Of a stretch of 64,000 nt of DNA, positions 60,772 through 63,105 are shown piece after piece. A model generated the notes under the pieces. It did not search any database and had not been told where the DNA came from. It saw only the letters and a list, made by a program, of their open reading frames with translations. Position 1 is the stretch's first letter. Every line of letters begins with the position of its first letter. Source of the DNA: Escherichia phage vB_EcoM_SA20RB; the sequence record OL960581; one strand, written 5' to 3'. Made by a program: the position numbers and the translations under genes.

Positions 60772-61037
60772 TAATATTTTTCCTCTGGTTGGAACACAGC
60801 ACGACAAGCCCACATACTGGCTTCTTTGAGTTTCGTTTTAGCAATAGTTAACTGATCGAGACTTTCAGCATAATTCTTCGCGAATTCACAGTCTTCACAA
60901 TTATTTAGTGCTTCCCAGAATTCATCATACAAAGCATCAAAGATAAGTCCTAAACGAACTTCAGCGTCTTTGATAGCATTCACTTTACCGATTTTCTCTT
61001 CAGTATGTGGTTTATAACCTTTAATGTCTTCAATCAT
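60771..61037 (-). CDS. hypothetical protein (88 aa)
   Basis: ATG start. Confidence 0.45.
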
Positions 61038-61251
61038 ATTTTACTTCCTCACCAGTACCTAAATCATATTCAACTAAACGAATAGGCTCATGAATGCCAT
61101 AACCCTGAACAGAAATTTCTGTCGTAGGATAAATTCCATCAATATCACCCATATTCCATGCTTCATTAAATTGCTGTTCGCCTGAATTACTAAACCACTC
61201 GGCGAAAGCATTTAGCACATCTTTAGAACCTTCAATAATTATCTTTGCCAT
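61030..61251 (-). CDS. hypothetical protein (73 aa)
   Basis: ATG start abutting upstream stop. Confidence 0.45.
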   Translation of the reverse strand: MAKIIIEGSKDVLNAFAEWFSNSGEQQFNEAWNMGDIDGIYPTTEISVQGYGIHEPIRLVEYDLGTGEEVKYD

Positions 61252-61613
61252 TACAAACTCTCAGTAAAGGTACGAGCGATAACGTCGCGCTGCTGTTCCG
61301 GAGTTAGAGAGTTAAAGCGAACTGCATAACCGGATACACGGATGGTCAGCTGCGGATATTTTTCCGGATGCTTAACTGCATCTTCCAGAGTTTCACGACG
61401 CAGAACGTTAACGTTCAGGTGTTGACCACCTTCAATTTTAACTGTAGGCTGTTGCTCAATTTCAATTTCACGGGCATGCAAACCATAGAAAATTTCTGGG
61501 TCTACAAAAGAGTCCTCTTTAAAGGTTTTAGAGACAATAATTCGTGCTTGAATACCATCTTCAAAATAAATAGTACCTTTATGTGTGCCTTCAAGAATTT
61601 GATATGCTTTCAT
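61251..61613 (-). CDS. autonomous glycyl-radical cofactor (GrcA/YfiD-like, 120 aa)
   Basis: C-terminal about 60 aa ..[60 protein letters not shown] with RVSGY glycyl-radical motif, as recalled for E. coli GrcA and T4 Y06I. Confidence 0.75.
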
Positions 61614-61620
61614 ATAAACC

Positions 61621-61848
61621 TCAATTAGAAAATAAATTTATCCAAGATTGTTCTTTAATTAAAAATGGCTCAGAATCATATGCCATTAAACTCTGTGTGA
61701 TTAGTCCTTTAAAAGGCCCATCAATAAATTCCATGGTAAAATATGGAATTTTATTCATTAGCCGTGCATTAGGAGCCGTGCACAAAACTCTGCATCCTTT
61801 GAATACGCCTTTTTGTAATTTGTATTGCTTAGGATAAAATTCGCTCAA
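61621..61848 (-). CDS. doubtful ORF (75 aa from TTG; 45 aa from first ATG)
   Basis: no ATG start or SD at the 5' end. Confidence 0.25.
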
Positions 61849-61948
61849 AATGTTATTTTTTTTGCCAAAATTTCAAAATGATTCACCAATTTATTTTTAA
61901 TAGTTTTTGGTGAAAAATAAAGATATTCGAAAAGCTGAGTGTCTGTCA

Positions 61949-62491
61949 TCATTGCATTCCGATTACGAAAAACTGCGGACGAGTAATACCACCAATGCAG
62001 CATTTACTATTGCAGCAGTGTTGCACAGTTTCAATATGAATATCGTAAATTTTATCCATATCAGGAGATTTAACAGGCTCATCGATTATATACAAAATTC
62101 GAGAAAGCGATAAACCTCTGAACTTGCTACCTCTATTACCAACAAAACTACGGACAGAATCAGTAAATAAACGGAATCGAATATCATCGCTAGAATAACG
62201 AGAAAATTCTTTTTTAATGCGGCCCGCAGAAATTTTAGCGTAAGCTGAAGTATTAGAAAGAACAATAACTGTTCCACCATCATACAACCAATTAGCGGCA
62301 AAATTAGTTACTGCAGTTGATTTACCAGATTGTCTGCCACCATCTAAACGAAGTGTACAATATTCTTTAAATAAATGCGACGAATCAGGTACATAAAATC
62401 CACTATTACAAATTTCTTCTACTCTAGCATCAGAATGGTGTGTAAAAGCATTCATCAGGGATAGATAAGGACCAGTTAAAAATGTTCTCAT
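61949..62491 (-). CDS. small P-loop NTPase (180 aa)
   Basis: Walker A GGRQSGKST, Walker B ILYIIDEP; ATG start. Confidence 0.5.
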   Translation of the reverse strand: MRTFLTGPYLSLMNAFTHHSDARVEEICNSGFYVPDSSHLFKEYCTLRLDGGRQSGKSTAVTNFAANWLYDGGTVIVLSNTSAYAKISAGRIKKEFSRYSSDDIRFRLFTDSVRSFVGNRGSKFRGLSLSRILYIIDEPVKSPDMDKIYDIHIETVQHCCNSKCCIGGITRPQFFVIGMQ

Positions 62492-62631
62492 TTCTTCTCT
62501 CTAAGTTTGGGCCATTCCATGGCGCATGAATTGTCCATTTCTGTATTTACCCATTACCGCACTTGGGCTCGACCTTATTACAGGTTGGCGGGAATCCCTC
62601 ACAGAATCATGAGGTCCAGGTTGTTCCCATA

Positions 62632-63105
62632 TTATTTGAACGATTTAACGTACTGAATAGAACCTTTACTATTCACGAAAGCGATTTTACCATTTTTATT
62701 ATACATGGTAGCAGTACGCTGATAGCCATAAGTTTGCTTACCAGATTGATAACCAACTAATGCAAAATTATCTTCACCCATTTTATTCTGTTTAGCACGA
62801 ATGCGTTCATGACCATGTGCCATAAGAACCTTAGCATCACCAGTTGCAATGGATCTACGAGTTTTTTCATCTTCAACTGTATTAACAAAGTCGTCAAATG
62901 AATCAAATTTAGCATGAGATTTATTATACAGTTTTCCATCTACTGCATAATTATATCCCTGTACATCCATCTCAACTTCTGTACCATCATCCAATACAGC
63001 AGTGATTTTCTGTCCTTTTTTAAATTTCAAAAGATCAGTAAAAGATTCAGCAATAATTTGAGAATTAATAGCTGCTTCAGTAATAAATTCTTGATATGTT
63101 TTCAT
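62632..63105 (-). CDS. capsid internal protein with N-terminal capsid-targeting sequence (157 aa)
   Basis: N-terminus MKTYQEFITEA matches T-even IP capsid-targeting sequence (MKTYQEFIAE); AAAGGAAA SD. Confidence 0.6.
   Translation of the reverse strand: MKTYQEFITEAAINSQIIAESFTDLLKFKKGQKITAVLDDGTEVEMDVQGYNYAVDGKLYNKSHAKFDSFDDFVNTVEDEKTRRSIATGDAKVLMAHGHERIRAKQNKMGEDNFALVGYQSGKQTYGYQRTATMYNKNGKIAFVNSKGSIQYVKSFK

Follow-up and report, generated by a model that had tools for sequence, protein, structure and literature searches.

The DNA considered here is a 64,000-nucleotide stretch of Escherichia phage vB_EcoM_SA20RB (sequence record OL960581), which as a whole is called the window below. It is a segment of a Tequatrovirus (a T4-like phage), with a T4-type lysozyme gene and a regB/vs region arranged in T4 order. 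Its minus strand carries a short open reading frame (ORF), starting with ATG and flanked by a vs.7-like ORF on one side and a vs.5-like ORF on the other, with regB/vs.1-type genes farther downstream, which is the ortholog of T4 vs.6, the gene for the protein Y06I. The matching position in T4 is annotated vs.6, "autonomous glycyl radical cofactor GrcA" (NP_049730), the two genes are equal in length and 98.9% identical in nucleotide sequence (up to 99.4% with other Tequatroviruses), and their products differ at 2 of 120 residues, Q54P and R73H. The gene, listed as conserved across all T4-like genomes (PMC1524935), and its biochemical function are already known, and it is not presented here as a new system. 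What sets it apart is its 3' half, in which 175 nucleotides are those of an Escherichia coli grcA allele. The gene is therefore read here, with a probability of about 0.8, as a spare part for pyruvate formate-lyase (PFL) whose conserved 3' module has been overwritten by host grcA, probably on more than one occasion, by way of homologous recombination.

The protein matches the Pfam family Gly_radical (PF01228) over residues 60-101 with 67 bits, against a gathering cut-off of 22.2, and its top NCBIfam family is spare_glycyl/GrcA (TIGR04365), with 154.9 bits over profile positions 25-126 of 126. The nearest solved structure is that of E. coli GrcA (also called YfiD; 6OWR, E = 9e-42), followed by PFL, to which the phage domain aligns at PFL residues 697-759 with E = 5e-26. 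It shares fold and motif with the C-terminal domain of PflB and TdcE, and it resembles GrcA in being a small stand-alone protein of about 14 kDa without the PFL barrel, matching just the last ~65 positions of PFL models. The initial annotation, made from the letters alone, had proposed a GrcA/YfiD-like glycyl-radical cofactor gene and had suggested a comparison with T4 Y06I; both the family assignment and the orthology are borne out.

The same annotation had given the C-terminal 60 residues, with the RVSGY site, as those of E. coli GrcA, and the number is exact: residues 61-120, including RVSGY with Gly95, equal GrcA residues 68-127, and the first mismatch is I60 against V67. At the level of DNA, gene positions 179-363 match grcA at 97.3-98.4% identity in all 5426 of 5426 complete E. 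coli genomes searched with blastn, whereas the first 178 nucleotides of the gene have no blastn match in any of them. Within this match, the tract set out in Table 1 agrees at 175/175 nucleotides with E. coli strain 401651 and at 173/175 with a K-12-like allele (ungapped comparison), and in 2420 of the 5426 genomes the identity to it reaches 99% or more. Because it has CGT for Arg73 and CTA for Leu102, the tract of the window is identical to a rare E. coli allele; the T4 gene, which is otherwise alike in position, in its E. coli-type tract and in its junction, has CAT for His73. When the whole window was compared with the same genomes by megablast, this tract matched and no other part of the 64 kb did, so that identity to the host is higher here than in the other phage genes. 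The tract is also specific to E. coli. Among codons that specify the same residue, 3-5 of 60 differ from E. coli alleles, three of them in the last 10 nucleotides of the gene, as opposed to 17/60 for Citrobacter, 21/58 for Klebsiella pneumoniae and 28/58 for Salmonella. Since the nucleotide identity of pflB and tdcE to the tract is only about 80% and 75%, respectively, these paralogous domains were rejected as the source, and the donor is grcA and not pflB.

The composition of the tract points in the same direction. Its guanine-plus-cytosine (GC) content is 0.486, as compared with 0.337 in the 5' half and 0.344 in the whole window (z = 3.6), and its GC at third codon positions is 0.41 against 0.20 in the 5' half. 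It is the most GC-rich 175-nucleotide stretch in the window, only 0.02% of all segments of this length reaching its GC content, all of them within 61247-61457. The contrast between a GC-rich 3' half and an AT-rich 5' half, which had been noticed by eye, is thus present in a computed profile. A shift in codon usage, which had been proposed as a further check, is present as well but modest: leucine is encoded by CTG in four of five cases and proline by CCG in three of three, and the tract lies at the 6.5th percentile of phage-like codon preference, evidence far weaker than that from GC content and identity.

Table 1. The vs.6 ortholog and its parts in the window, with the basis of each assignment
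Feature	Position	Strand	Basis and remarks
vs.6 / Y06I ortholog, GrcA-type autonomous glycyl-radical cofactor	61251..61613	minus	120 amino acids plus stop; ORF list, T4 match, Pfam, PDB
Host-derived tract, 175 nucleotides, coding for residues 60/61-118 (glycyl-radical domain)	61261..61435	minus	identity to E. coli grcA
Phage-type AT-rich 5' half, codons 1-59 and first base of codon 60	61436..61613	minus	GC content, low grcA identity, no E. coli blastn match
Phage-specific 3' end, GAG AGT TTG TAA (host GAA AGC CTG TAA)	61251..61260	minus	GAGAG element; TAATG overlap with the downstream start
RVSGY motif	61326..61340	minus	translation and alignment with 6OWR and PFL chains
Gly95, predicted glycyl-radical site	61329-61331	minus	equivalent to GrcA G102 and PFL G734
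Putative Shine-Dalgarno sequence of vs.6, GAGG	61619..61622	minus	5 nucleotides 5' of the ATG; read from the sequence
Downstream 73-amino-acid ORF, vs.5 position, phrog_1986, unassigned function	61030..61251	minus	start codon overlaps the vs.6 stop

The tract is not peculiar to this phage. An E. coli-type tract with one common junction is found in every Tequatrovirus and Mosigvirus copy examined, and 642 phage records reach 95% identity or more with the tract of E. coli. Tequatrovirus and Mosigvirus differ from each other at 18-24 of 178 nucleotides (10-13%) in the 5' half and at 0-5 of 175 in the tract, and the same holds for synonymous codon changes, of which there are 11-13 in 51-53 codons of the 5' half and 1-4 in 58-59 codons of the tract (Fisher p = 0.0006-0.011). 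The phage tracts depart from E. coli alleles by private singletons only, giving a star-like pattern with the host at its centre. At least 18 phage records, among them AR1 and Kha5h, are 100% identical to the K-12-type allele, which is distinct from the allele of the window.

In Jiaodavirus, a genus of Klebsiella phages, the tract is of the K. pneumoniae type and begins at the same junction as in the E. coli phages. The tracts of Nispero and KpV477 agree with K. pneumoniae grcA at 169/175 and 163/175 nucleotides, respectively, as against 151-154/175 with E. coli, and in an IMG/VR contig (L173) 5 of 53 same-residue codons differ from K. pneumoniae, all of them in roughly the last 20 nucleotides. 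The K. pneumoniae tract is matched at 95-99% identity by 106 phage records, and all six matches sampled at 94.6-97.1% come from Klebsiella phages. Taken segment by segment, the identity between the tract studied here and that of Jiaodavirus mirrors the identity between the grcA genes of E. coli and K. pneumoniae. At this one junction, then, phage sequence has been replaced in a host-specific manner, and independently, at least twice.

The K. pneumoniae grcA gene used for these comparisons was taken from a chromosome that PLSDB lists among its plasmids (L179, CP125156.1, 5.37 Mb); "plasmid" records in that database include entire or partial chromosomes. The K. aerogenes gene (strain NCTC10006, LR134122.1; L180, 200-584) was corrected by hand for a frameshift of one nucleotide before comparison. 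In that record a one-nucleotide homopolymer insertion, probably a sequencing error, truncates the annotated coding sequence.

In a codon alignment guided by the proteins, the phage gene is homologous to grcA throughout its length. Its N-terminal half can be aligned with that of E. coli GrcA through the pattern ARxIVxK...ED...RE.x.E..P.V, although the 60 residues concerned are only distantly related, with 30-60% nucleotide identity upstream of gene position 179, and the phage protein is 7 residues shorter. Over the first ~195 columns of the alignment the gene shares 26-60% identity with E. coli grcA; this value then passes through 86% to a steady 96-100%. The 5' junction is accordingly sharp and falls at AAA ATT / GAA GGT, that is, at K59-I60 / E61-G-G-Q-H. 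GrcA is reported to be disordered up to residue 60 and structured from residue 61 to residue 127, the structured part having the fold of PFL residues 693-759 (PMC8683613). The EGGQH junction lies 7 residues within this structured half, so that the tract, which starts at GrcA residue 67/68, spans essentially the structured radical domain. In phages that lack a host-identical tract, namely Slopekvirus, Pseudotevenvirus and Karamvirus, the 3' module still shares 66-90% identity with host genes, as against 20-66% for the sequence upstream of it. The 5' breakpoint can thus be read as a similarity cliff, recombination with the host being possible only where constraint on the protein would have kept the DNA similar.

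On the 3' side, homology between the phage gene and grcA ends with the stop codon. The last 10 nucleotides of vs.6 have three synonymous differences from host grcA, and in the lineages compared the final 10-20 nucleotides are never host-like, which in Jiaodavirus costs a residue change from ESL to EAL. The TAATG overlap of stop and start codons is kept in all the phage lineages compared (L084-L091 and the window), and GAGAG, GAGG or AAGGA stands 6-8 nucleotides before the downstream ATG in all of them except T4 itself; neither host gene has TAATG, and these elements are absent from both. The element at the 3' end of vs.6 is probably the ribosome-binding site of the downstream gene, which would then be translationally coupled to vs.6, and it is plausible that the phage-specific last 10 nucleotides have been retained to keep this site.

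Some other phages are altered at or near the EGGQH junction. In Escherichia phage vB_VIPECOOM03 (L098, 201-569), an in-frame expansion of 6 nucleotides just upstream of it turns EIEIE into EIEIEIE. Two phages of a single species, Krischvirus RB49, namely kaaroe (L095, 167-583) and vB_EcoM_011D4 (L096, 167-583), agree at 237/240 over the first 240 nucleotides of vs.6 and at about 73% over the last 177; the break falls at the same EGGQH junction, and neither 3' half is more than 81% identical to any sampled host. In vB_EcoM_011D4 a homing endonuclease gene lies immediately 3' of vs.6 and may have driven the swap of the 3' half. T5-like Tequintavirus contigs from Salmonella and E. coli phages (L092, L093, L141-L166) have a grcA-like gene for 122 amino acids beside a tRNA cluster, with an N-terminal half unrelated to that of the T4-like phages and a 3' half 70-75% identical to host genes, as though this module had been acquired separately and at an earlier time.

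A mechanism that would produce this anatomy starts from an old, diverged grcA homolog distributed across T4-like and T5-like phages. In its 3' module, constraint on the protein would keep the DNA 73-90% identical to host grcA, as opposed to the 30-60% of the 5' half, and this residual similarity would permit homologous recombination with host grcA DNA during infection, in which the host allele would take the place of the phage sequence in the module. The tract would then end on its 5' side where similarity collapses, at EGGQH, and on its 3' side, 10 nucleotides before the end of the gene, where homology stops and where the ribosome-binding site and TAATG overlap of the downstream gene must stay. 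Such replacement appears to be recurrent and would be carried out by phage or host recombination machinery.

That the 3' module was acquired from, or recently recombined with, host grcA had been suggested from its GC content and its protein sequence, and the identity of 175/175 nucleotides upholds the suggestion. The protein identity is by itself no proof of transfer, because the C-terminal domain is near-invariant in all the phages and bacteria examined: in Cronobacter phage JC03 and in IMG/VR locus L110, the C-terminal 61 residues are those of E. coli, yet 29/61 codons differ. It is the nucleotide identity that shows the transfer, since synonymous sites that are free to vary in JC03 and L110 match E. 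coli here. The extreme conservation of the domain could also suggest that there was no recent transfer at all, and that an ancient capture has been held in place by purifying selection on both protein and nucleotides, for example through mRNA structure or a shared regulatory site. This is very improbable, given the freedom of synonymous sites just described, the differences between the bacterial genes themselves (30/175 nucleotides between E. coli and Salmonella, 21/175 between E. coli and K. pneumoniae), the host-like rather than phage-like GC content and codon choice, and the presence of a Klebsiella version in Klebsiella phages. Identity is likewise silent on direction, and the 3' half of E. 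coli grcA might in principle have come from a T-even phage. There is little to recommend this idea. The transfer ran from host to phage, because the tract is located at the conserved ung-grcA locus in 5426/5426 E. coli genomes, because its divergence from the grcA genes of Citrobacter, Salmonella and Klebsiella is graded, as in vertical inheritance, and because its GC content (0.49) matches that of the remaining E. coli grcA (0.46) and stands out from the phage background. Host DNA is, finally, frequent in phage preparations, so that host reads might have been joined to a phage contig during assembly. Such an artefact is scarcely conceivable for a junction found in hundreds of phages that were sequenced independently of one another, among them those of T4 reference records and of IMG/VR contigs, and for a tract found in at least 642 phage records that leaves the reading frame intact and is followed by a phage-specific last 10 nucleotides and overlap with the downstream start.

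More serious is the possibility that the module was captured once, recently, in a single T-even phage, and then spread from phage to phage over Tequatrovirus and Mosigvirus, with no ongoing conversion by the host and with Jiaodavirus as a separate one-off. T-even phages are known to recombine freely, every Tequatrovirus and Mosigvirus copy examined has the same 5' junction and similar differences at the 3' end, and Tequatroviruses isolated on Yersinia, Hafnia and Salmonella still have the E. coli-type tract. This history must, however, accommodate a 5' half that is genus-specific beside a tract that is not, so that each exchange between phages would have to end at one junction, as well as the star-like arrangement of phage tracts around the host by private singletons and the exact matches of different phages to different E. 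coli alleles. The E. coli phages fit either history; a single capture is judged the less likely of the two, though a serious rival, and repeated overwriting by host grcA is preferred. Several points nevertheless weigh against that preference. Recombination is inferred from sequence, and no event has been seen directly; the one junction in all Tequatrovirus and Mosigvirus genes would fit a single capture followed by spread. T4 degrades host DNA and carries hydroxymethylcytosine, for which reason recombination from host to phage is expected to be rare. The 5' edge has no decayed margin, though a model that needs flanking homology predicts one. A C/T polymorphism common to phages and E. coli lies at a fourfold-degenerate site that is also G in some phages; it may reflect recurrent mutation, and is suggestive of multiple transfers without being decisive. 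No phage tract more than 95% identical to the Salmonella type was found, so that host tracking is not general, and the phages of Enterobacter (Karamvirus) and Cronobacter (Pseudotevenvirus), together with Slopekvirus, RB49-like, T5-like and Aeromonas phages, are unconverted, with 70-85% identity to every sampled host gene. As to the spare-part function, the TIGR04365 score falls short of the curated equivalog cut-off of 170, a shortfall ascribed to the diverged N-terminal half under a model built for bacterial proteins, and the published rescue of PFL is an in vitro result, from which the benefit to the phage in vivo is extrapolated.

A further, tentative idea, held at somewhat less than even odds, is that the 3' module acts as a self-reinforcing conversion trap. 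Constraint on the protein would allow occasional recombination with grcA, and once the module had become identical to the host gene it would be refreshed repeatedly, so that the tract would report the recent host species. If so, virulent phages with hydroxymethylcytosine would be continuously re-copying a piece of the very chromosome that they degrade, the type of tract would indicate the recent host (E. coli in Tequatrovirus and Mosigvirus, Klebsiella in Jiaodavirus), and the glycyl-radical module would be a general exchange cassette in T4-like phages, as the swap of 3' halves at the same junction within one RB49-like species would suggest.

The nearest precedent is host-phage intragenic recombination in psbA and other auxiliary metabolic genes of cyanophages, where host-type patches with host-like GC content and recombination breakpoints are reported to match the host group of each phage. 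In vs.6, too, there are a near-identical tract, sharp breakpoints, host-like composition and lineage tracts that match the phage's own host, this last feature being absent for Salmonella, Enterobacter and Cronobacter phages. Unlike the cyanophage case, the phages concerned are virulent enterobacterial phages with hydroxymethylcytosine, the patch lies within one structural module, and it recurs with the same junction in several genera and at 100% identity to extant host alleles. Because the tract is host-specific, E. coli against Klebsiella, at an identical junction, vs.6 can be regarded as a compact enterobacterial counterpart of cyanophage psbA, and one that is tractable in T4 and E. coli for the study of gene conversion. 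A literature search returned no account of the nucleotide-identical tract or of its host specificity, though an earlier mention may exist; the host-tracking pattern is best described as an under-documented and unsurprising extension of known host-to-phage patch recombination. The interest of the tract lies in its being the one part of these 64 kb of T-even genome that shares its DNA sequence with E. coli, and thus clean evidence of natural recombination of a T4-type phage with the host chromosome, despite the destruction and exclusion of host DNA by T4. There are practical consequences as well. A perfect host match of 175 nucleotides can mislead read mapping, filters for host contamination, the calling of auxiliary genes and the design of markers, and grcA has been proposed as a quantitative PCR marker for Straboviridae (PMC12845203).

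With respect to function, Gly734 of PFL carries the glycyl radical and is the site of cleavage by O2, and validated spare-part proteins number only two, T4 Y06I being one of them (PMC8683613). Both Y06I and YfiD are reported there to restore O2-cleaved PFL after activation by the PFL-activating enzyme (PFL-AE), the in vitro result for Y06I being cited from Wagner et al. 2001. The near identity of the window protein to Y06I suggests that it, too, rescues cleaved PFL. O2 would cleave PFL at Gly734, the C-terminal domain of the phage protein would slot into the damaged enzyme, and host PFL-AE would turn Gly95 into a radical, upon which the production of acetyl-CoA and formate would resume. The N-terminal region of GrcA is reported to mediate binding to cleaved PFL and efficient activation (PMC8683613), and the phage retains an N-terminal half of its own, so that a comparison with host GrcA could inform the biochemistry. 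The phage gene also differs from host grcA in standing in an early-region operon and not under the host grcA promoter. T4 shuts off host gene expression, and a phage would likely profit from its own copy during microaerobic infection in the gut, when host grcA could not be induced under this shut-off. The initial annotation had proposed rescue of either PFL or the ribonucleotide reductase NrdD. For PFL the published in vitro work on Y06I agrees with it. The PDB contains structures of T4 NrdD; the 33 of its sequences matched at E <= 1e-3 include no chain of a ribonucleotide reductase, which leaves a role in NrdD rescue unsupported.

Scans for tRNAs and Rfam families around vs.6 found nothing. 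Upstream of it, the vs.7 homolog is broken into ORFs for 52 and 75 amino acids (61845-62003 and 61621-61848) by a poly-A run of 8 at 61856-61863 (minus strand) where T4 has 6; the remainder is nearly the same as in T4. The run may mark a true frameshift or a pseudogene, may be slippery, or may stem from an error in sequencing a homopolymer. A second GC-rich patch lies at 62500-62650, with a GC content of 0.47-0.48 in 100-nucleotide windows, between an ORF for 180 amino acids (phrog_1488) and an internal-protein ORF; no tRNA, Rfam family or E. coli match was found in it, and its sole ORF, for 33 amino acids, has no PHROG match. The internal-protein ORF itself (62632-63105, minus strand), which stands between the vs.8-like gene and lysozyme gene e, encodes a 157-residue variant of an internal virion protein (phrog_3155, E = 6e-102), at a site where T4 has denV, ipII and ipIII and which is known as a hypervariable internal-protein locus.

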